Shown here piece after piece: positions 3,338-55,417 of a stretch of DNA of 64,000 nt. The translations under genes and the position numbers were made by a program. How positions within the stretch are numbered: position 1 is the stretch's first letter; each line of letters starts with the position of its first letter. The notes below the pieces were generated by a model that saw only the letters and a list, made by a program, of their open reading frames with translations, was not told where the DNA came from and did no database searches. Source of the DNA: Squalus acanthias (taxonomy: Eukaryota); the NCBI GenBank assembly GCA_030390025.1, contig CM059434.1, positions 99,138,001 through 99,202,000 of the forward strand, written 5' to 3'.

Positions 3338-5900
3338 CATAGAAGGACAGACGTTACAACATGGAAACAGGCTGGTTGATCCAACCAGTCTGTGCTGACA
3401 TTTATCCTCCTCCACACAAGCAGTAGTCCCAATCCGATGTGCCAGACAGGGTTCCCCCTTTCCTTCAACTTCTTATCTAACCTGTTTTTAAATGTTTACA
3501 TGGTCTCTGCTTCAATCACTAACTCCACAGCCTCACAACCCTCTGTGTAAAATAGCTTCCCCTGCTCCCTGTCCCAAATCTCATATTTAATCTGACATCT
3601 ATGTCCTCTTGTTCTAGACCCCTCAACCACTAGAAACAAAGGGCTGGATTTTCCCAGCCCTGCGGAGGCGGGACTGCTGGGAAAATGAGAAAAATTGGGA
3701 GCGGGTCCCAACCCCGCTCCCAACCCACCTCCGAACCATCTTCCCGGAAGGCGGGTCCCTGACTCCTAGCGGCGGGAAGGGGATTAGAGCCAATTAACTG
3801 CCTGTTAACAGGCAGTTAAGAGGCTTTTCCCCATTTTACGCCTGCTGATGCGGGCTTCCTGACGTCGGGGAACCCCGCCAAGGTCATCGAGGTGAGCTGT
3901 GGGTCTGCTGCAGTGTAAGTGTGCAAATGACAGCTGCAGAGGTAGTGTGATGGGCGCAATGGTGCACAGGTAAGTATGACAGGTGAGAGAATGTAGTGAG
4001 AAATATTTTTATTCTGTTTATATATATCTGCAGGTGACAAGATTTGATGTTTCTGTGAAGCCTCATCTGATCGGGAGAATTGACAGATGGCTTCTGCAAT
4101 CTCACATGCAGCTGCCATCTGTTTTCTCCTAAGGAGAGAAACACTGACAATTCATCTGTCAAAAAATTATGGTGCCCGTCACTTTAACAAAACCAGCAGA
4201 TGAAGCATCATGCACTGACGTCATCTGACACCGAATTTCCCATAATTGGCCGGCAAGCCCACAGGGCGGGCTTAACAAGGCCAATCAGGGGAAAATAGCG
4301 TCAGTTCGTCTGACGTCGCTGGGGGTGGGACTAAAACCCAGAAACCAGCAGTCCCGCCCCCAACGCGCCTCCTCAGGTAAGATCCCGGCCATACAGTCCG
4401 TTTCTATTTACCCTGTAACATCTCTTCATCATTTTAAATACCTCTATCAAATCACCCCATAAATGTTCTAATAAAAATGGACCCAATTTTAAGTCTTTTT
4501 TTCATATTTGTTTTTCCTTATACTAGGCAGCATCTGAGTGAATCTGAACTGTAACGTCTCTATGGCCTCAACATCCTCCCATAGTGTGGAACCCAAAACT
4601 GCATACAGTACTCCAACAGTGATCGTACTAAGCTTTTATATAGATTCATCTTGACTTTTACATTTTACACCTCTTGCCATAAAACCCAGTATTCCACTAG
4701 TTTGTTTTTCCAAAATGGTCTTATCCACTTGAAGTACTGCTTTTAATAGCTCCACAACCTCAGCCCCAAAATCTCTCTGCTCTTCCACATCACCTAACCT
4801 TCCCCCATTCAAAGTATAATTATGACCTTTTTAACCATCTTATCCCTTTACAGCTTCCTTTGGTCCTCAGAATTATTTACTATGCCTTCTACTTCAGTAT
4901 GATCTGCAAATTTAGACACCGCTCTCGCTCACCCTTTATTCAAATCACTGACGTACACAGTGAACAGAAGCATTTCCAGAACTGAACCCTGTGGGATACC
5001 GCTATCTACTTCCAACCACTCTGAGAAACTGCCCTTAATGCCTATTCTGTTTCCTACCTTCTAACCAGTTTTTAATTCAATTTGCTACCCTCCCGCTAAT
5101 CTTCCTTAGTCTTCTCAATTAGTCTCTGCATGATACCTTGTCAAAGGATTTCTGAGAATCCATGTACACCACATCCACCATATCTGTCACCCCTTCAAAG
5201 ATCTATCAGGTTTTCAAGCATAATCTTCCTTTCTTAAATCTGTGTCATCAGTGTCTAATCATTTTCTCTTCATCTAGATATTTAGTAATTTCATATTTAA
5301 AGATTCAAAACATTTTCCCTACCATAGATGCTAAATTAACTGGTCTGTAATTATTCAGGTTAGCTCAACCTCCCTTTTTGAAAATGATATTACATTGGCC
5401 ACTCACCAGTCCTCCAGCACGCATCCACTCAATAGAATCCTGAAATATAATTCCTAGGGCCTCTGCAATTTCTTTCTCCATTTCCCTCAAGATCCTTCAA
5501 TGTATCCCATCACGTCCCGGCGCTTTAGCTTAACTAACTTCTTTCATACTTTCCTTTTATTTATTATATCTTTCATCTTGCTTTTAACTAATTAAGGATT
5601 TACCTGCTCCCCAATATGCTTCTGTTTTGTACGCACTGATGCAAAGTACTTGTTAGAAGTATTCCGGTCAAATTCTATTTACTCTCTACTAACTCATTAT
5701 CCTCTCCTCTCAGGGGTCCCTCCACACATTTAGCAATTCTCTTTTTACGGATGTATTTGTAGAATACTTTATTGTTCTTTTCAATATTTTTGAGACTCTC
5801 TTCTCATATTCCCTCCTTGGTATCCTTATCCGTCTTAACTCTTACCTTATTTTCTCGTATTCTCCCTTTTAAAAAAAATCATACCTCTAAGTCCCATATC
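3338..5900 (-). mobile_element. CR1 LINE ORF2/3' end, degenerate (interrupted by a MITE)
   Basis: Minus-strand RT motifs VDVVYMDSQKSFDKV (~5140-5180), GIPQG (~4990) and VSKFAD (~4900-4920). CR1-type 3' UTR near 3340-3400. Confidence 0.85.
3641..4390. mobile_element. Harbinger-type MITE inserted in CR1
   Basis: TIRs GGGCTGGATTTTCC / GGTAAGATCCCGGCC and subterminal inverted GGCGGGACTGCTGG / CCAGCAGTCCCGCC. CR1 sequence is continuous across the insertion. Confidence 0.75.
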
Positions 5901-6100: not shown

Positions 6101-7038
6101 GAGCATGGTACAGGCTACAGATTGGGTCTATTCTACCACTTCACAGTTTCCTAATAAAGTTAGGTCCAGGAGGGTGTTTGGATTTAGAAAAACTGTCCAA
6201 TACATGTGAACCTGGGAAAGACATTATAAATCAGGTTCAGGAAAATAGACCCGTGGCTCTAATCCATGCATAACATGAGACATCTGTTGAAGAGGCTCCT
6301 AGTTAGAATTCCAAATAAAAGTGGGACTTAGTTGCCATATACTGCTACCTTATTAGGAAGGATGCTGGGTGGTTGTGACATCATACAGTATCAACGACCC
6401 ATCTGTAACCTCAGCTGGATGAAATACCCCACTTCAGGCTTCTTGCATTGACCTTTAACCCTAGCACCGAATAATTGAATACAACTATCTATTGCAGTAC
6501 TATTTATCTGTGATGGAAGCCCACCTAGATGACCTTGTCACAAAATAACATGACAGTTGATGAAATGGCCCAATTTAAATCGACACACTGCAGCTGAAGA
6601 TGACAGAGGTCCAAACGCTGGTCACAAAAAGGCTTTCATGCAGAACCAACCTGCCATCAAGTATAACTGTACGATAAAACCAACCAAAATGAGTAACATT
6701 AGGTTCACACTGTCAAAGGGGAATGTGTCTATTTTTATTTTTTCATCTGCTTTCTCAGAACAGGGAAATACTTCCCTGCTTCTGTCTGGTCTATTCCAGC
6801 ATGATAAAATGGTTGAGGAGGCGAGGTTGAAACATATAGTTCCTAATATTAAATTTAAAGTGATCTTCATCTATGAACCTGAACAACTCTGGGATGCTGG
6901 TACAAGTCAAATACAGATACACATAGATTTGACTGTATCATCTTGACTTCATCTCATGTGATACCATACACTCTATAGCAGAATCAGGCCTTAATCTTAA
7001 ATAAACAAATTTAAAATAAAAACACGTGAGACACTAAC

Positions 7039-7677
7039 CTGTATAATCTTCACGACATTCACAGTTATAGCCTCCCTCCCTGCTTCGGCAGAGACCATGA
7101 CTACCACATGGATTCGAATAACAAAGGTCAATTTCCGTTTCACAATAATCGCCAGTAAATCCAGGAGGACACCTGCACCGCAGTCCATTGATGGGATGAA
7201 TGGGTCGGAATAAGACCGTGTCAGATGAAATGAAAGGAGCTGAACTGTCAAACTTCAGCACAGACACACACTTCATGTAGTTTTCACAGGGCTCTCTCAG
7301 GCAGATATTGTCATCAAAGGGGAGGACCCTCTGAGTGGAGATAGTGGTCAGCAGTGTCCGGTTGAGGTAAATTTGTTCTTGCAGATCCTCTGAAGGGAAG
7401 TATTGGTTTCGAACCCCACCTGGCAGCAATGCAGAGAAACTCACATTCAGAATGTTTGCGCTAACATCCGTATCATTTTGAATATTAAAAATAAAAATGT
7501 CATCTTTGGTTGTGGACAACACAGCGGCAACTCCTTCCACAAAGAGAGACAGCAGTGGAGACAGAAATTTGTCCTGGGACATGTTCTCCAAACGCACGGT
7601 GATGCTGTTCGTCAGCATGTCTTCCGTAATGATGGTCACTCTCAAAGTACAGAGTGCGGTAATGATGTGAATACCAT
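7039..7677 (-). CDS. CELSR1: CELSR1 internal coding exon (equivalent to human exon 2): end of cadherin repeat 9, membrane-proximal region, EGF-like 1 and 2
   Basis: Translation (D)GIHIITALCTLRVTIITEDMLTNSITVRLENMSQDKFLSPLL...EDLQEQIYLNRTLLTTISTQRVLPFDDNICLREPCENYMKC...CRCPPGFTGDYCETEIDLCYSNPC...EDYT(G) is near-identical to vertebrate CELSR1 as I recall it. Acceptor ttttttcctccAG (AG at 7679-7678), donor GTtagt (7038-7037). Length 639 bp, phase 1-1. Confidence 0.96.
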
Positions 7678-8439: not shown

Positions 8440-9995
8440 TCTCTGCAGGAACGTGTGAGGAGCTCATGAATTTCTCCCCAAAATTGAGGCTACCTGCTCA
8501 GCTAACTCAGCCTCCTCCTGTCCCAACCACCAAGCCTCCTAAGACCGCATAATACTCTGTTGCTTTTTCCCTATCTCACCCCAGCCCTCATCAGACTGGT
8601 TTCCTCCAAGACACCCACTACTTTTTCTCGTGACTATGTGCTTAATCACTCAATGCTAACATTGTTAGCTCCTCCTTTTCCTCAGCCATTATTCTCTCCT
8701 TCAAAACTGTTACCATCACCTCTCTTTTAAAAGCCTATAGTTGACCCCTCCGCCCTCTCCAACAACTGCCCAACTCCAACCTTCTCCTCTGTAAAGTCTT
8801 CAAATCATCAACACATAACTCTGCGGCCACTTCTCCTTATTCAAATTCTTTCAATCTGATTTCTGTCCCTCCCACAGCACCAAAATTTCCCTGGTCAAAC
8901 TTAACAATGAGATTGTGTGACTGCAACTGTGGTGCATTATTCCTCACGATCCTATCTGAGCTTTCATCACAGATAATCTGTATGTCCCCTTCCGCCACCT
9001 CTCCTTCGTGATCCACTTCGATTGCACCGTTATTGCAATGGCTTCTCTTCCTATGCCACACAGTCACCTCCAGCATGTCCAAAATTCTATCCCCAGTCCC
9101 TCATTCAACTATACGCTGCCTCTTAACTTTATCGTTAAGTGTAGGGTCAGTTTTCATGTATCCACAATCGCACATGATTTCATGACAGTTGTGTTATCTG
9201 ACTGCTTCTGCACCATTAAGTCATAGATGAGCCAGGTCTTTCTCCAGCTCAAAGACAAGGCAAAAGCCATTCTTTTTGGCTACCACCAGAAACTTCACAA
9301 ATTAGTCTCCGATTCCATCCCATTTTCTAATTAATTGCTTCGGCCAGATGATGTGCAACTTCAGAGTTCTGTTTAACTCTGCACTGAGTTTCAAACCCCA
9401 CATCCAGTCCAACATCGAAACCTCGGATTTCCACCTCCAAATTATCACTCACCTGGGCCTATATACCTCGCCGGTCTGGAATCCTCATCCACACCTTTGT
9501 CACTCCAGACGTAATTTCCCCAATCCCTTTGCCAGCCACCCAAACTCAAACCTGTGCAAACTCCAACTTAACCAAGACTCTGCCACTCACATTCTATCCC
9601 ATACTAAGTTGCGCTCACTCATCAGTCTTAATCTCATTGACCTCCACTGGCTACCCATCACCCAGTGGATTGATTTTGAAATACTCGTTTTAGCCCAACT
9701 CTGCAACTTCCTCCAGCCCTATGTATCCACTTGCACGCTCCATCTTCCAGCTCTGCCTTACTGTGAACCTCCCCTCTCTGTCCACTCCACCATTGCATGC
9801 AGACCCTTGAGCTTTCATACCATCCCCTTTACCAGGTCTCTCACCACCTTCAAAAACCTCCTTAGAATCTCTTCGAGAGTGGCTACAGAACTCTTCTCCC
9901 AACTTCTTCTTGGGTCTGACAGACCCCCTCCCTTGTGATGTACCTTGGGATACTTCACGACACTAAAAGGTGCTATACAAGTGCAAGTTGCTGTT
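8440..9995 (+). mobile_element. L2 LINE 3' portion, degenerate
   Basis: ORF 9348-9938 has LQLNQDSATHILSHTKLRSLISLNLIDLHWLPITQWIDFEIL (the L2 'LHWLP' motif). Tail aaaggtgctatacaagtgcaagttgctg. Confidence 0.8.
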
Positions 9996-30421: not shown

Positions 30422-30941
30422 AGGGTAGAGTTTCCACTTTGGCCACAAACTGGAAATTGGACCCAAAATGTGCTCGAAATTGCGCTGGTCAGATTACAGT
30501 TCAAGCTGCCACTAAAATTAATTTGCATAATCACAAAGGTAAAATCTTCAATGAACCAGTGCAATCGGGCAACACAACAGACAGTAATCATTTTTTTCCT
30601 CCCATTAAAAAGTATTCCTTGCTGTATTTAAGAATGGTAACCTGGTGCAGTTTTATTAATGCAGCTGAAAATGGGATTATCACCAAAAATAAGCATTTTT
30701 AATAAGAGTGTCCCGAACCATCGCAATTAGCGGAATCTCGCAATGCCGACCTGGGGACGTGGCCAGTTTGTGGGCGGGGCTTGATCCGATGAATTTAATC
30801 TTGAACCAGCACAAAAGATCGCGGGAAACACAATGTGCTTTTGGATGCAACTCACTTACGTTTAAAATTCCCCGATCTTTCGTGCTGGTTCAGCAGATTC
30901 CGCCCGGATTACGCTGATATTACTAGTGGAAACTCTACACC
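30422..30941. mobile_element. Harbinger-type MITE
   Basis: TIRs AGGGTAGAGTTTCCACT / AGTGGAAACTCTACACC (14-bp perfect core); flanks TTA/ATA. Confidence 0.78.
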
Positions 30942-31380: not shown

Positions 31381-31719
31381 GGCAAGGCAACATCATCCGA
31401 CATATTTCCTGTCGTTAATGCTTTAATAGTGCAGGCCATCAGAAACACCATTGCATTCCTGGTGACCAGCATTGCTAATAACACGGGGGTGGGAGGAGAT
31501 TACAAAATGGAAGGGCTACCTTGCCTAGTGCAGAGCAATTGACTCCACTAACCACTGTGGGAGTTTAAATATAAATTGAACAAAATATGTACTTTTCCTT
31601 CAGCCAGTGCAGCCAACCGTGCTACACTGGAACAAGAGCTGCAGTTGTTGTATTCCTCCTCCAGCCCAAGTCGATCTCCCAAAATAGCACAGAGTCTCTA
31701 CCATGAATACTTCAAATCA

Positions 31720-31936
31720 TGATGCGGAGATGCCGGTGTTGGACTGGGGTGGACAAAATTGAGAGGTCGCACAACACCAGGTTATAGTCCAACAGTTTTA
31801 TTTGAAATCACAAGCTTTCGGAACTATCGCTCCTTCCTCAGGTGAAGTCACCTGAGGAAGGAGCGATAGTTCCGAAAGCTTGTGATTTCAAATAAAACTG
31901 TTGGACTATAACCTGGTGTTGTGCGACCTCTCAATT
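31720..31936. mobile_element. Penelope-like element remnant: inverted pseudo-LTR pair forming a perfect palindrome
   Basis: 90-bp arms at 31756-31845 and 31848-31937 with a 2-nt loop (AG). Direct repeat TACTTCAAATCA at 31708-31719 and 31937-31948 (TSD). Confidence 0.8.
31848..31885 (+). ncRNA. Minimal type-I hammerhead ribozyme motif (mirror copy on the - strand at 31808-31845)
   Basis: UCAC-CUGAGGA-A-GGAGC(GAUA)GUUCC-GAAA-GC-UU-GUGA: stem I UCAC/GUGA, CUGANGA and GAAA core, 5-bp stem II, palindromic AGCU in place of helix III. This matches the PLE-associated minimal hammerhead layout. Confidence 0.7.
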
Positions 31937-34599
31937 TACTTCAAATCACCCAGACCCTGGGAAATCTGCGGGGGACGTGGGTGGGACTCCTGCCCCCACA
32001 CACTTCCAGTGGAACCCCCACCACAGAAAAAAAATATCGGCCCTTGTTTCCTCTGATCAGTGAGATGGTAATGAGAGGGCACAAATTTAAAATAATTAAA
32101 AGAATCAACAGGGTGTTGAGAGAAAAAAAAAAAATCTATAGAATATGGAAATCTCTGGCACAAACCATGTTAAAACAGAGTCCATAAATTCTTTTAAAAG
32201 GGAATTACACAATAATTACTTGAAAAAAAGCAATATTAAAAGGTTTGGGAAGCAAGCAGAAGAGTGGGATTAGCATTGGTGGCTCCTGGGGGAAAATGAC
32301 AGGTGCGTACTCGATGAGTTGATTCTATAGATGGGCAGAAAATTGACCAAAAATGTTATTGGAAAATTTTTGTAACAAGAGAGGCTGTTTGGATCGGTTT
32401 TGTGATGTCGAGAAGATTTTTAACGTGACTCTCGACTGGAATCTTACAAATTTGGCAATAGGTTAACATAGTGTATCTAAACCCTGCCTGAAACTGCTCA
32501 AGTATGTTAGTGCCAAAACCCAGATTGATGTATCTGACAGACACAAGCTAACGAACAAAATGCATGTCCTTCAACAGATACAGACCCATCACATCAGATA
32601 ATCCATCAGCACATGAAGAAACATGTTTGCAGCCAGGGCTGAAACTGCTGTTTGGCAAAGTCCAATCCAGTTCCAATTTCAGGCACTAACAGGAACAAGG
32701 TCTGGTCTCGCAACTGCATTTTCACAAATATTTCTTATCGGTAAACTAAATATCAATTACAAAAACTAAAGGCCTCAATTACTGAAAATCTGAAACTAGT
32801 TTGAATGGAAGAAATGTGGAATTTAAATAAAAATAAAAAAGGTGAGGTATTTAAATGGGGCATCACAGTGGATGTTTGTATCTGTCAAGTGAGTTTACTT
32901 TATGTATCAAATAGAAACATTAATTACATTTAATTACTTGAAGAGATGCATAGCATTTAAACCTTGTATATGCCGTAATACATCAGTTCAAAACAATATT
33001 TCTTTTAGCACAGAAATCAGTTCTGAATGAGCTGCACTCCTCACACAAATACAGAGAGAAATGAATAGTAAAGAACAGCACCTCCTGGGGTTCAATCTAT
33101 CCTGTGGCATCATCTGGAGAATTTATTCAGACCCTGGACCAGGACACCTGTTTCAGCCTCCATGGGAGAAACGTGGAATTTGTTGAATCAGGGTCCCTTT
33201 ATCCCAACTGTCACATAAGAATGTCCAGCTGTTCATTCTGGAGAGATTGTTCTGTTGAAACTGCGGATATTCAGCTTCATCTCTGGCGTATGAAGCAGCT
33301 TCTCCTGAACTGGGATGAGGGCGGGTGGGGGGGGGGGGGCGTGTGGGGTTTGAGGAGAAAAGAAAGAAAGCAAGCGAGAAAGAGAGAAAGTAAGAGGGAA
33401 AGAAAGGAGAAAAATGAGATGGACAAACATTGACAGAGATGGGACAAAGAGGAAAACAAAAGAGATGGACGGACAGTCAAAAAGATGAGAAAAATGCAGA
33501 CAAAAATAAATGACACCAAGATAAAAAGAGAGGAGATAGAGTCAGAAAGAGATAAAGAGGAGAATCTTTAGAAATACAGGCAAAGTTTTCCAAAAACATG
33601 GCAAATATTATAGAGAAAAAAAAACTTGCATTTATATAGCACCTTTCAGGATGCTCCAAAGTGCTTCACAGCCAATGAAGTGCTTTTCAAGTGTAGTCAC
33701 TGTTGTAAAGCAAGGAAACATAGCAGCCAATATAAAGACAGCGGGGCAGAGTTTTCTGATCCCCGCCTGGGCAGCAGTATGGGTGCTACAATTAGCCTCT
33801 GTGCCCTTGGGTTAGGGAGGGGAAAGATTGGCATGGGGTCCCTCTCCTAAACCCTGCTGGAACAAAAAAAAACTTTCACGCATATAGTGTCTTATCACAT
33901 CTCCCAGAAATATTTCAAAGAGTTACACAATAATGCAATTTGCAGTATAGTGACAGTTATTATGTAGGTAAATGGGACAGTCATTTTTTATTCGTTCTCG
34001 GGATGTGGGTAATGCTGGCAAAGTCGCATTTATTGCTCATCCCTAGTTACCCTGAGAGGTGGTGATGGGCCTCTTGAACTGTAGGAGTCCTTGTGGCGAT
34101 GCTGCTCCCACAATGATGTTAAGTAGGGAATTCCAGGATATTGTTCCAGCAATGAAGAAGAAACAATACATGTCCAAATCAGGATGGTATGTGACTTGGG
34201 AAGTGACTGTGTTCCAACAGCATTGCTGCTCTTGTCCATGGTAGAGGTCGCTTTAAGTAATCTTGACAGCTGCAGTGCAGAGCAAAATCTCACAAACAGC
34301 AATGAGATGAATGAAAGAAAGAGCTTGCTTTTATATAGTACTCTTCATTACCTCAGGACATCCCAAATGCTTCACAGCCAATGAAGTGCCTTTGAAGTGT
34401 AGTATTTGTTGTAATGTAGGAAAAAGCGGTCGCTAGTTTATGCACAGTAATGTCCCACAAACAGCAGTTAGATAAATGACAGATAATCTGGTTTTTTTTT
34501 AGTTTTTAATGCTACAGCATTAATGAAAAAATCTGATATAGTGTTTATAACAACTGGCTAGAATGTGTTAAAAGGATATTGCATGTTCAAGGGGTTTCA

Positions 34600-50680: not shown

Positions 50681-52268
50681 TCCCGCCCAAACCCCAAAGG
50701 AAGCGCTTCTCGCCACATCCCCCTCTCTAACCTTCCTTTCCAAGATCCTTGAATGTGTTATTGCCTCTCAACTCCACGCCAGTACTCCATTTGAATGCTT
50801 TTGGTCTGGCTTTCAAACCGCTCTCAGCACTGAGGCTGCCTTAACCAAGGTCACAGATGACATTCCCTGTGACTGTGACCATGCTACATTATTACACATG
50901 TTACACGTGAAAACAGAGTGCAGAGTGCAGAGGTCACTGCTGGACCTTTCTTGTAATTAATTCATAAACATTTGCAAATAACTGTTTTTTAAACACCTTT
51001 CCTTCCTGACAATTAAAACAACTCTATAGGGGCTTTGAAAAGGCAGCAGTTGTTTTCAATGCCCCCATCCTAACTGGATGGAATTCTCACAGGTTCTCAA
51101 TGGCAGGTTTTGGTGTATCAGGTGCAGGGAGTTTGTCTTTTCAATTCATAACAAAACAGAAGGACTGATTGAGTTACATCTGACCTGGTAAATATGCGTT
51201 CTTTCTTTGTATATACACTCACACAGATACAGCTACACGCCCAAACATTTTAAAATATATTTGTCCTTGCGGCATGGCAAGGCAGTGCTTATTGTCCATT
51301 CCTAGTTACTCTGAAGGAATGAAGAGTCAACCACTTAGTGTGGGACTGGAGTCACATGTAGGCCAGACTGGGTAGATGTAGCAGGTTCCCTTCCCTGGTG
51401 GGTAGAAAGAATAGAGATATATTGAGGAGAAACTCAGGGTTGGGCTTGGGGAGGGTGGTACTTGAGGATTTTAAAAGCGAGGCCAGAAGGGTGGAACAGG
51501 GTGAGGGGCTTGAAGGAGAAGATGGTGCCAGTGGAGTAGGGAGAGAGACCATGGTGATGGAAAGTATAGCCAGGCAGGGAGGCTCAGACAAGGCTGACAC
51601 GTATAGCACTATGTACCCAAACATACACAGCAAAGATTTAAATTCAAGAAAAAACATTAGTGTGATAAACGGCAAAGCCAGTGATTTGCAAATCACATTT
51701 GTTTACACATGTATAGTCATGCAAGGAAATAGCAGTGAAAAGAAACAAGCTAGTTTCACAAGTACAATGTTACAATGTAGATGGAAGGATTGATTACAAA
51801 GCAGTTTCAACAGATTCACGGGGGCTGCAAATGTAACAAAGATAAGAACTATACTTTAAAACGTAAAAGTGTTTTGTCTTGACCAGAGACTGGGCTAGCT
51901 CACCACTTTTTCGGCTAGAAATTCATTATAGCCCAAGAATGGGCGGTGTCATTAGAAAAGTTGGAGAATTAGCGCCAGGCGCCAATGCTTTAGACTGCAC
52001 ACAAAATTCAGGCTCACTGCTCAAAAAAATGATTGGAGTACTAACTCAAGTCTTAAAGCCCAAGCTCACTGGCGTTCACTCAAAGGGTGGACCAATATCG
52101 GGGGCAGTCTAATCGCAAGTCATGATTGCCACAGGCTTTAATCAGTACTTAAAGGGAGGTTCATTGATGCTGCAAAACCTCATTCTCAGCATTGCTGGCT
52201 GTGCAGCTGCCTCAGCAAGCAGAAGCAGGACAAGGAGAAGGAGCCGGAGGACTGAACCAGCTGTACTC

Positions 52269-54116
52269 ATGGAAGATCCACGCCCCAGGGAGAGAGCCCG
52301 CAGATTCTGCGATCAAGCATTGGAGGCATTGGTGCTCGCTGTGGAGAGACGGAGAGCGGTGCTCTACCTAGCAAGTGGCAGGAGGCCCTCGCCGCAAGTC
52401 TTCCGCACCATATGGAGGGAGGTAGTGCAGCACATCTCGGGCAGCACTGTGGTCCCCAGGACTCACACACAGTGCAGGAAGAAATTTAACAACCTCACTC
52501 AGGTGGGCAGGGTAAGTGAATGCTTCAACAAATGCTACATACCACCATCTGTACCACAATCTTCACACACTTCCCAAAGCACCACACCCCCACCTACAAT
52601 CTCTACCTACCAACACTCACACCCACATCTCACACCTTGCACACAATGGCAACTATTCAACTATGGCAGGCACATCACCCAAACACATTGCTCCACACTC
52701 ACTCACACACTTTCCTTTCTGTTGCAGGCCAAGGTGGCTCACAACAGGAGGGAACAGGAGCGCACAGGCGGGGGACAAGTTAACACCCAACCACTGTCTG
52801 TGCTAGAAAATAGAGTGCTGCAGATTATTGGGCGCCGTGGCCACTGGCGACGTTGACCCCCCTGGGGACAACAATATGTTCATCCCTACTCCTTCTCACA
52901 TCCCACTTCCCCCTCACCCCACAAGCGTTTCGCACTTTCCAGTTAATCATGCTGTATGGATGCATTTCTCCCTTCCTGCTCCCCTCCCCTCACCTTAACC
53001 CGACTCTTGTGCCTTTATGCTTTTATGCTTTCAGATAATGAGCAAACACCTGAGCAGCCTGTCCCTGAGGGCATCATAGAGAGCGAGGCGGGAGAAGAGG
53101 AGGAGGTAGAACACACCGTGTCACTGCACGTCTCACCCGCAGGCACCAGCTCAGATACTGGCACTATGTGTTCTTCAGAGGCGAGTATAGTAACAGAATC
53201 TGCATAGGGTGAGGCACTGGGGACGAGTGGGCTGCAGCAAGGCCAGGGGGAAAGGGTAGCTCGGGGGCCAGCTCCTCGGAGGGCGAGTTCTGCTGCACAG
53301 GACTCAGATGAGGACGCCTTTAGAAGAAGGGTGATGGGCATGCACATGGAGATAATAGGTGCAATGGCAAGGGTGCCCGAGAGCCTCTCGGCAATGGTAA
53401 GGAGCGTGGAGGAGTCTGCCTCCAACATTGCACAAGGCTCTGCGCACACCATGGAGCCCATCATTTCCAGTCTACAAAGGATGGTAGACTCCCAGAGAGA
53501 CCGTGGCGACCCAGACCTGATGCCGTGTGTGATGGGCAATCTGGCAGCTTCCATTGCAGCACAGGTGGAAACGACGCAACGTCTTAGTGCTGTAATGCAG
53601 TCTATGCTTGGTGGCATCCAACCTCAGATTGCTCTCATGCAGTCTCAGCTTGATGCAATGCAAGCACTGACTGCTGCCATCGTGGCTGGGTCTACCACCG
53701 TCGACTGGGGCTTTCAAGGTGTCGCAGCAGGCCAGCAATCTGTGCTCCAACAGATTGCTAGCGATGCTGAGATGCTGCCCAGGGGGAGAGGCAGTGGATC
53801 AGTGGAGCAGGAACTTGCTGTCCTCTCTCAGGATGACAGCATTCCTGCTCCCAGCACTGCCACTCCGCCATTGCCAGTCATCCAGCCAGCCCAGACTGCT
53901 GCCGTCCATGCTGAGGTGGTGCAGTCTACAGCCGGGCCTTCCAGGCCCAGAGCTGGTCGAGGGTGTCCTGCAAGGCCATCTGAAGTCTCCCGCACGGGCA
54001 CTCAGCAGCCTTCCTCCAGCCCTGCTGCAGCCACTGGGCCAACACTTCGTAGGAGCACTGGAGTAGGCAAAGGCAGAGTAACAAGGGGCACTAAGGGATT
54101 GCACAAGGGTGAATAG
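52269..54116 (+). pseudogene. Harbinger Myb/SANT-like DNA-binding protein gene, 3 exons (52269-52511, 52728-~52875, 53035-54116), disrupted
   Basis: MEDPRPRERARRFCDQALEALVLAVERRRAVLY...WREVVQHIS...RTHTQCRKKFNNLT is the trihelix Myb/SANT (MSANTD/NAIF1-like) pattern. Donor GTAAGT at 52512, acceptor ttgcAG at 52727, exon 2 AKVAHNRREQERTGGG, acceptor tttcAG at 53034. Apparent frameshift near 52835 and in-frame TAG at 53205-53207. Confidence 0.85.
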
Positions 54117-54280: not shown

Positions 54281-55417
54281 TCATTCGAACCGCAGTCTGA
54301 TGAGGCGGTCACGGACTGCACTTCCGGGAGGCCGATTGAGTGGCTGCCTCCTTCCTCGCTCCTCTTCCTCCTCTCCCTCTTCCTCCTCCTGAGGTGGTCC
54401 CGCAATCCCTGGTGGAAAGGGATGGGCCCTCATGATAGCCAAATTGTGGAGCATGCAGCAGACCACCACGAAATGGGACACTTGTTCAGCCGAGTACTGG
54501 ATGGCTCCTCCCGAGCAATCAAGGCAGCGGAACCGTAGCTTCAGCAGGCCGATGGTCTGCTCGATGATGTTCCTGGTGGCAGCATGGCTCTCATTATATA
54601 TGAGTGCTGGGCAGGAGTGTTGGGGTTGCGGAGGGGAGTCATGACCCAGTTGGTGAGCGGATAGCCCTGGTTTCCGAGCAGCCAGCGGTGAGCTTGATGT
54701 GGTGGCTGGAAGAGTGCTGGCACACTGGTCTGGTGCAGGATGAAGGCATCGTGGCTGCTGCCAGGATAGCAGGCACTGACATTGCAGATTCACTGTCTGT
54801 GGTCGCACACCAACTGCACATTAAGTGAGTGGTAGCCTTTGTGGTTACGGAAGATCTCAGGATTGTTATGCGGTGCCCGCAAAGCCACGTGGGTACAGTC
54901 AGTGGCACCCTGCAACATGGGGAATCCCGCTATCCTGGCAAAGCCACATGCACGCTCGTCCTGCTTCTCTCTGGTGATGGGCAAGAAAATGTAGTCCCTT
55001 CTCCTGCTGTAGAGAGCCTCTGTGACCTCCCGGATGCAGCGATGGACGGCGAACTGTGAGATGTTAGCTATGTCTCCTGTTGCAGACTGGAAGGATCCGC
55101 TGGTGAAGAAATTGAGGGCGGCGGTGACCTTGACTGCTACTGAAAGAGCAGTGGTCGCCCTGATCGGAGGCTGGAGGTCTGGTTGCAGAAGGTGGCAGAG
55201 TTCTGTGATCACCTCTTGGTGAAGTGGAGCCTTCTAATACACTGCTCCGCACTTAACTGGAGGTAGGAGAAGTGCTCTCAGAATACCCTCGGAGGGTAAG
55301 ACCTCCTGTTGAGAGCCCTGATGGCCCTCCTCCTCCCTCTAGGCACATGTTCCAGTCTTTCTCGCTCCCTCCGCCGTAGAACCGGAGGGTGAGGTCGACT
55401 GCCAGTACAGCCCCAAT
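54281..55417 (-). pseudogene. Harbinger DDE transposase (HARBI1-like, DDE_Tnp_4), disrupted
   Basis: Joined ORF pieces: ...ALSVAVKVTAALNFFTSGSFQ...GFPMLQGATDCTHVAL...NHKGYHSLNVQLVCD...YPGSSHDAFIL...WLLGNQGYPL...YNESHAATRNIIEQTIGLLKLRFRCLD...CCMLHNLA. TGA stops (e.g. 54790-54792), frameshifts, second catalytic Asp appears as Asn, and the likely start codon reads ATT. Confidence 0.92.

Follow-up and report, generated by a model that had tools for sequence, protein, structure and literature searches.

The palindromic insert examined here is the smallest product of a Penelope-like element (PLE) probably of the Neptune/Nematis type, which encodes a reverse transcriptase (RT) and a GIY-YIG endonuclease, and it does not represent a separate non-autonomous family; its locus in the genome of Squalus acanthias is unremarkable and, like thousands of others, represents a type of insertion that is already known. 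The insert probably arose by twin target-primed reverse transcription of PLE RNA, with two short copies joined head to head at the predicted capped, uncleaved 5' end of that RNA. The palindrome and the occurrence of a ribozyme motif on both strands would then best be explained as by-products of integration.

Together with its flanking target site duplication (TSD), the insert occupies 31708-31948 of the window, by which we mean the whole stretch of 64,000 nucleotides that was analysed (Table 1). The repeat finder returned two arms (31756-31845 and 31848-31937) of 90 nt each, 100% complementary and spaced by 2 nt, and the 12-nt direct repeat that forms the TSD. Since the T at 31937 belongs both to the end of the right arm and to the first base of the TSD, the insert ends at 31936 and measures 217 nt (31720-31936). 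A 20-mer of the arm occurs twice in the 64-kb window, once per arm (0.01 expected). An earlier note on this DNA had described perfect 90-bp arms, a 2-nt loop, a 36-nt leader and a 12-bp TSD, all of which the repeat finder and the sequence confirm, and had viewed the whole as a young TSD-flanked insertion made in a single event, a view that is supported. The exon listed last in Table 1 matches CELSR1 (PDB 8vy2, E 8.5e-59), and the insert presumably sits in an intron of a CELSR1-like gene; no upstream CELSR1-like exon was found among the 150 longest of 650 ORFs, which were the ones scanned. The window also contains a shorter second inverted repeat (30802-30892, 23-nt arms, 91%, 45 nt spacing), about 0.8 kb to the left of the insert, and a Myb/SANT-like ORF (52113-52853, + strand) that faces pieces of a DDE_Tnp_4 transposase (54284-55233, - strand), which we take to be the gene pair of a PIF/Harbinger-type DNA transposon.

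Table 1. Features of the insert and of its likely host gene (positions in the window; +1 was placed from the TATA/Inr spacing and the pile-up of arm ends)
Feature	Position	Strand	Remark
Left TSD copy, 12 bp	31708..31719	+	Last 3 nt (TCA) also agree with the continuation of the element (tail/ORF start), a microhomology
PLE tail, 36 nt (3' extension of the pLTR)	31720..31755	-	On the tail-bearing arm only; same sequence in L091, followed by the ORF start codon
Tail-bearing arm, minus-strand pLTR copy	31756..31848	-	Ends at the predicted transcription start; complement of +1 at 31848
Minimal type I hammerhead motif, tail-bearing arm	31808..31845	-	Predicted cut 31812/31811; mirrors the + motif
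Head-to-head junction, 2-nt overlap TC	31848..31849	+	C presumably copied from the RNA cap
Tail-less arm, pLTR copy	31848..31936	+	Spans +4 to the internal reverse-transcription start region
Minimal type I hammerhead motif, tail-less arm	31848..31885	+	Predicted cut 31881/31882; palindromic AAGCTT at helix III
AATAAA, candidate pLTR polyadenylation signal	31891..31896	+	Possible signal, read from the sequence; mirror copy in the other arm
Right TSD copy	31937..31948	+	Its first T also fits the pLTR, a microhomology
CELSR1-like coding exon of the likely host gene	7037..7330	-	About 24 kb downstream of the insert in gene direction

Each arm carries the hammerhead motif that the earlier note had read in it, as both parsing and folding bear out. 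On the + strand, helix I pairs 31848-51 with 31882-85, the core CTGAGGA (31852-58) is followed by a bulged A, and helix II pairs 31860-64 with 31869-73 around a GATA loop, after which GAAA, GC and TT lead up to the predicted cut; the mirror copy on the - strand runs from 31845 to 31808. All elements of a minimal type I hammerhead are found (the core CUGANGA..GAAA..UH, the two helices I and II, and a helix III that is palindromic). Rfam returned a weak match to Hammerhead_HH10 (22.5 bits, E 0.14), below the gathering score of 75. Rfam matches to miRNAs scored under their own gathering values and were discarded as hairpin artefacts. Among 370 hammerhead motifs in the fetched loci, retrieved with a search that demanded the hammerhead core and left the pairing of helix II free, each of the 28 commonest variants, some with G-U or C-G to U-A changes, keeps helix II paired. 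In fold predictions a single arm forms helices I and II (-12.0 kcal/mol), whereas the hairpin of the whole insert reaches -178 (+ strand) or -171 (- strand) kcal/mol versus -10 for the hammerhead fold in place. The hammerhead is thus predicted to be locked shut within the hairpin and the ribozyme to be inactive there, in keeping with the self-inhibited ribozyme that had been proposed earlier; in a read-through transcript the antisense arm would come first and is predicted to keep the ribozyme closed. The ADAR, Dicer and cruciform roles that the earlier note also raised find no support in these data.

The family to which the insert belongs is large. Exact-pattern counts gave at least 8,523 leader (tail)-bearing ends, 20,146 core ends and 42,396 matches for the wider family, and a DNA search for relatives of the insert returned 2169 candidates, of which 40 were scored. 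Locus L091 is a near full-length copy, composed of a pLTR, the leader passing into the start codon, an RT-bearing ORF and a second pLTR; its ORF spans 877 aa from stop to stop, with a frameshift near the C-terminus (RVT_1, E 2e-9). In L176 the open frame is 895 aa long, with RT (RVT_1, E 1.6e-8) and, at the C-terminus, a GIY-YIG domain. For the parent protein the GIY-YIG match has an E-value of 1.6e-4 and a score of 22.3 bits, slightly below the cut-off of 22.6. The leader continues into the start codon in L091, and therefore the leader of the insert is the known PLE tail read in antisense. These copies establish the Penelope-like origin that the earlier note had put forward. The parent family also shows the canonical features of EN+ PLEs, namely a single RT ORF with C-terminal GIY-YIG, direct and inverted pLTRs, a tail and a TSD. 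The parent protein has a CCHH motif (two Cys between VVY and YIG, two His later), DKG, and the linker CHGKLCKTC, which is of the form CX4CxxC and falls under the CX2-5CxxC definition of the RT-endonuclease linker; by the definitions of these motifs for PLE clades (PMC8557442), they point, at the level of sequence motifs, to the Neptune or Nematis type. A comparison with solved structures gave no match to the parent protein. The one raw RNA run searched gave 0 reads for the element, and two contig sets of presumed RNA origin cover the element and are uninformative on starts or strand.

For a survey of copies we took the first 100 leader matches along one contig (its first 36.6 Mb), which correspond to 99 insertions, as two matches fell in one locus. 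Positions were mapped on L091, with +1 being the A of ACTTCACC, immediately above the hammerhead. An adjacent inverted second arm was present in 73 of these 99 tail-bearing insertions and a solo arm in the other 26; the inverted form is thus the majority outcome here, unlike in L1, where twin priming occurs in a minority of insertions. The shortest arms are under 100 nt, the longest go about 3 kb into the RT-endonuclease ORF, and the junctions vary. The outer end of the second arm falls at +90 to +110 in 68 of the 73 pairs, the remaining five ending earlier or being interrupted, and in none of the 73 does it reach the tail. Exactly one tail was found in 178 of the 180 head-to-head pairs fetched and two tails in none; in the sets that had not been picked for a tail, one tail was present in 78 of 80; of the two other pairs, one has a tail with an internal deletion and one lacks a TSD. 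Out of about 29 places with a core match and no exact leader, 24 were inspected: the tail was mismatched in two and missing in 22, and of these 22 an adjacent inverted arm was absent from 21, the remaining one having an arm whose outer end could not be assigned. Solo arms of both types therefore exist, with a tail (26/99) and without (21/22). A sister subfamily with the core CTGACGA (12,510 matches) obeys the one-tail rule and the +1 run-off rule as well.

The two arms of a pair are closely related in length and in sequence. Their lengths are correlated (rho 0.79, n=73; 0.81 for the 33 long pairs), 19 pairs have both arms ending near +1 where about 8 were expected (odds ratio 27), helix II is the same in both arms in 44 of 51 pairs versus 10% between insertions, and the arms differ by 0.7% over 20.5 kb, end effects included. 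Such likeness would also follow from self-priming, the proposal found in print, in which one copy or an antisense template folds back and is copied into the second arm and resolution by the endonuclease leaves the tail (PMC3846280 and, as far as the accessible parts go, PMC8557442). Self-priming accounts for near-identical arms and coupled lengths, the one-tail rule follows from it naturally, and the tail arm is indeed longer or about equal in 40 of the 73 pairs. A fold-back copy cannot outgrow its template. In 33 of the 73 pairs, however, it is the tail-less arm that extends the further in the direction of the RNA 5' end, versus 15 in which the tail arm does so and 25 within 10 nt (p 0.013); examples, with the tail arm given first, are +8 versus -264, +49 versus -771 and -484 versus -2800. 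Nor can a tail-less arm serve as the template for a tail, so that self-priming fails for nearly half of the pairs. Priming-type microhomology at both outer ends (see below) and arms with different ribozyme alleles speak against it too, and we regard it as unlikely. The arm likeness could also come from later gene conversion.

Twin priming accounts for these pairs as follows. The endonuclease, probably acting as a dimer, would nick both strands about 12 nt apart; one 3' end would anneal by 1-3 nt where the tail ends (about +133) and the other internally, near +94 and some 39 nt away; in most cases one RNA or one pLTR would hold both priming sites. Both copies would proceed to the 5' end of the RNA, straight across the uncleaved hammerhead. 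In the case of our insert both would have reached the start site just above the hammerhead, one of them gaining a C opposite the cap, and the copy ending in AGTC would pair its TC with the GA of the other copy, giving the exact junction that was found 76 times.

Several observations relate to the priming step. Filtering retained 62 of the 73 pairs; in 52 of these 62 the TSD is 12-14 nt long, and the median offset between the two priming starts is 39 nt (n=62). Microhomology at the outer ends averages 1.6 and 1.9 nt, compared with 0.4 and 0.7 nt in 1000 permutations of the TSDs (maxima 0.84 and 1.18), and its presence at both ends fits priming by both 3' ends of a staggered cut on sense RNA. 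A PLE protein studied in vitro showed, in the accessible part of that report, no difference between strands in start site (PMC11167929), which counts against a strict assignment of each strand to one site. As separate observations, the target ends are T-rich on both strands, and the TSD sequences of L053, L109, L125, L152 and L154, and likewise those of L032 and L092, recur at independent loci inside other repeats, which suggests sequence-specific hot spots.

The coupled lengths, the joint stops at +1 and the matching helix II favour a single RNA or a single pLTR as the template of both copies. Against a single template count 6 pairs out of 121, which need a second one: above the cut site their arms show an indel or at least two differing sites, and below it they are identical (of the remainder, one pair differs below the cut only and one is no single insertion; 22 pairs selected for a rare variant were counted apart). 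Similarly, in 4 of 25 pairs whose tail arm ends near +1 the other arm extends past -20. The arms of L225, L231, L238, L245, L254, L257 and L106 were seen to differ in their helix-II alleles and to be identical or nearly so below the cut, even where haplotypes are rare, and one arm-to-arm helix-II discordance was found again in three independent insertions. A second RNA, a template switch or ligation at the ribozyme are possible sources of discordant hammerhead alleles between arms; arms that differ solely above the cut may reflect RNA exchange at the hammerhead or the use of a ligated circle beside linear RNA.

We found a clear accumulation of arm ends near the predicted start of the RNA. In the pLTR of the element a TATATA starts 32 nt above an Inr-like TTACTTC, labels that follow what we take to be the TATA and Inr consensus motifs. 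Arm ends fall at -4 to +11 in 52 of 172 cases, versus 19 at -5 to -40. Over the whole genome, the number of arms that depart from the element is 955 after +2, 1345 after +1 and 1232 after -1, the last count being dominated by a subfamily with a different sequence there; for the GCTCC types only, scoring by eye of 100 listed matches each gave 58, 64 and 8, which extrapolates to about 550 at +2, about 860 at +1 and about 100 at -1. The base following +1 was C in 52, G in 38 and T in 10 of the 100 matches listed, whereas a C followed +2 in 19 of 100. When arms were not selected on the next base, 57 of 216 stopped at this point (C 24, A 16, G 16, T 1; the A and G counts take in arms that are one base longer, and a few perfect palindromes are counted twice). 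The other 159 extend past +1, so most templates are longer than the +1 start or begin in the 3' pLTR. We infer from these arm ends that +1 is probably the capped start of the RNA and that the extra C is probably derived from the cap; many C junctions lack a matching TC in the partner arm. As a counterpoint to the cap reading, G is also common after +1, and many C junctions, that of our insert included, can also be read as plain TC or T microhomology (1-2 nt) without a cap. The internal, TATA-less promoter described for Penelope of D. virilis (PMC2377424, as far as accessible) counts against the start-site reading. A GAGGA core variant in the sister subfamily was tried as a marker of the 5' pLTR (153 matches versus about 12,500 for the subfamily); about half of the ordinary arms in that subfamily also end near +1, as GAGGA arms do, and GAGGA may have arisen by point mutation.

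That short palindromes are longer head-to-head insertions shortened by a central deletion is in our view very improbable. Long forms exist, and long perfect inverted repeats are unstable; such deletions do not predict the pile-up at +1, the sharp fall at -1 or the extra C, and solo arms, which border directly on host DNA, end at the same point. Even less credence is due to an assembly artefact from fold-back reads: library chimeras can yield perfect palindromes, but the flanks here are unique and carry a TSD, the tail is on just one arm, and hundreds of sister loci follow the same rules with arm-specific mutations. Four sequencing runs, searched also with a view to an empty orthologous site, gave no cover of the immediate flanks.

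The exact junction of our insert occurs in 76 copies in the genome, less than 1% of the 8,523 tail-bearing ends. Some of these copies are 100% identical to it over 213-221 nt and each has its own TSD, as would be expected if a non-autonomous 217-nt ribozyme-hairpin element spread from a master by being transcribed and inserted whole, the family that the earlier note had envisaged. In the first 30 of the 76, however, the junction is found on seven helix-II variants plus one point variant, with both arms identical in 28, and the tail is on the AAGT-ending arm in 18, on the other arm in 11 and was detected on neither in one. The occurrence of the junction on many mirrored variants, with the tail on either side, indicates that it is re-formed at each insertion and that there is no single master. 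The same variants also mark long copies, near-identical junctions differ from this one by a few bases, and the stump has no TATA box. Copies with the same layout and their own TSDs thus exist, as anticipated, without descending from one another as a family; given also the range of arm lengths and the variable junctions, we consider a separate mobile unit improbable and do not retain that claim. The alternative raised at the same time, that the other copies are merely random truncations of long PLEs, largely applies, except that the truncations cluster at one point.

Arms that stop at the predicted ribozyme cut are rare. We counted about 180-190 of them, versus about 95 two bases away, among about 42,400 (about 0.4%), and this low fraction suggests that the RNA templates are mostly uncut at the hammerhead, as in vitro. 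Run-off at the cut was rejected as a separate class, being just about two-fold above the control and in part due to TCAC microhomology. AATAAA is present in L091 at 5639-5644 and 8775-8780, as in the window (Table 1), upstream of both reverse-transcription start sites; templates must therefore read through it or be circular or tandem.

The insert resembles several known systems. Canonical EN+ PLEs have an inverted, 5'-truncated copy, a tail of 30-40 bp at one end, a TSD and a hammerhead in the pLTR, and the pLTR of a rotifer PLE carries TATA/Inr-like motifs (PMC3846280, PMC8557442, PMC2377424, in the parts accessible). Our insert shares with them the inverted arm, the tail at one end, the TSD, the pLTR hammerhead and, in its parent, the ORF with RT and C-terminal GIY-YIG; unlike them, it is pared down to two pLTR halves. 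The accessible parts of these accounts invoke self-priming or endonuclease resolution and give no counts on tail asymmetry, length coupling or start-site run-off. In Schistosoma mansoni, dual minimal hammerheads on opposite strands, about 100-700 bp apart, were ascribed to truncated PLEs; as far as described in the accessible text, they are like ours in the bulged base before helix II and the palindromic helix III, whereas the motifs of our insert abut (2 nt) and are linked to TSDs, a tail and a parent element (PMC4209133). For the Poseidon element PAc of Anolis it was reported that both strands are nicked and extended in vitro by the protein, for which a dimer is predicted, that two start sites bound the tail and that uncleaved RNA serves as template, in agreement with the priming scheme above, the inverted products being left unexplained in the text accessible (PMC11167929). 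The element studied here has the CX2-5CxxC linker, which, going by the accessible descriptions, Penelope/Poseidon elements lack. Non-LTR retrozymes, described in the accessible part of a preprint (bioRxiv 10.64898/2026.07.22.740005), are short, non-coding and derived from PLE pLTRs, with type I hammerheads in head-to-tail repeats able to dimerise. Compared with these, our insert is head to head, predicted to be self-blocking and without a master lineage, and it does not qualify as a retrozyme.

A parallel to the proposed mechanism is twin priming in L1, in which, according to the accessible part of PMC11702581, microhomology lets the other target end prime a second reverse transcription, the TSD is retained, and the inverted pieces are joined through microhomology, with use of a cap-derived extra base (G). 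The retained TSD and the microhomology at the second-primed end are found here as well. In L1 the second primer lands beside the point where the first copy stops, and the resulting inversion has little overlap (PMC11702581), whereas in our family about 39 nt separate the two fixed starts, one stretch of RNA is copied twice and the overlap of the arms takes in the whole shorter arm; the process resembles twin priming without having the L1 form.

The making of the inverted ends and the tail of PLEs has been called undefined in the accessible text of PMC8557442, self-priming being the proposal in print (PMC3846280, likewise seen in part). A search of titles and abstracts found no twin-priming account of PLE inverted ends, although one may be in print, as most subscription journals, including the PLE reviews of 2005-2006, and supplements lay outside its coverage. 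The value of the present data lies in the copy statistics. They tell against fold-back and in favour of twin priming in which run-off occurs at a capped start, and they set rules for any PLE model: each pair has exactly one tail, either arm may be the longer, the arm lengths are coupled, both ends show priming microhomology, and run-off lies just above the ribozyme. Such rules can be tested in the in vitro system that already exists (PMC11167929, as far as described there). A stronger version, to which we give even odds, is that twin priming is routine and programmed in these elements, a dimer cutting 12 nt apart and loading two fixed sites of one RNA that lie one tail-length apart; the tail would then be the spacer between the sites and the inverted pLTR the second copy. 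If this is true, stumps such as the present insert would locate the RNA's capped start with single-base precision and reveal uncut RNA as the template.
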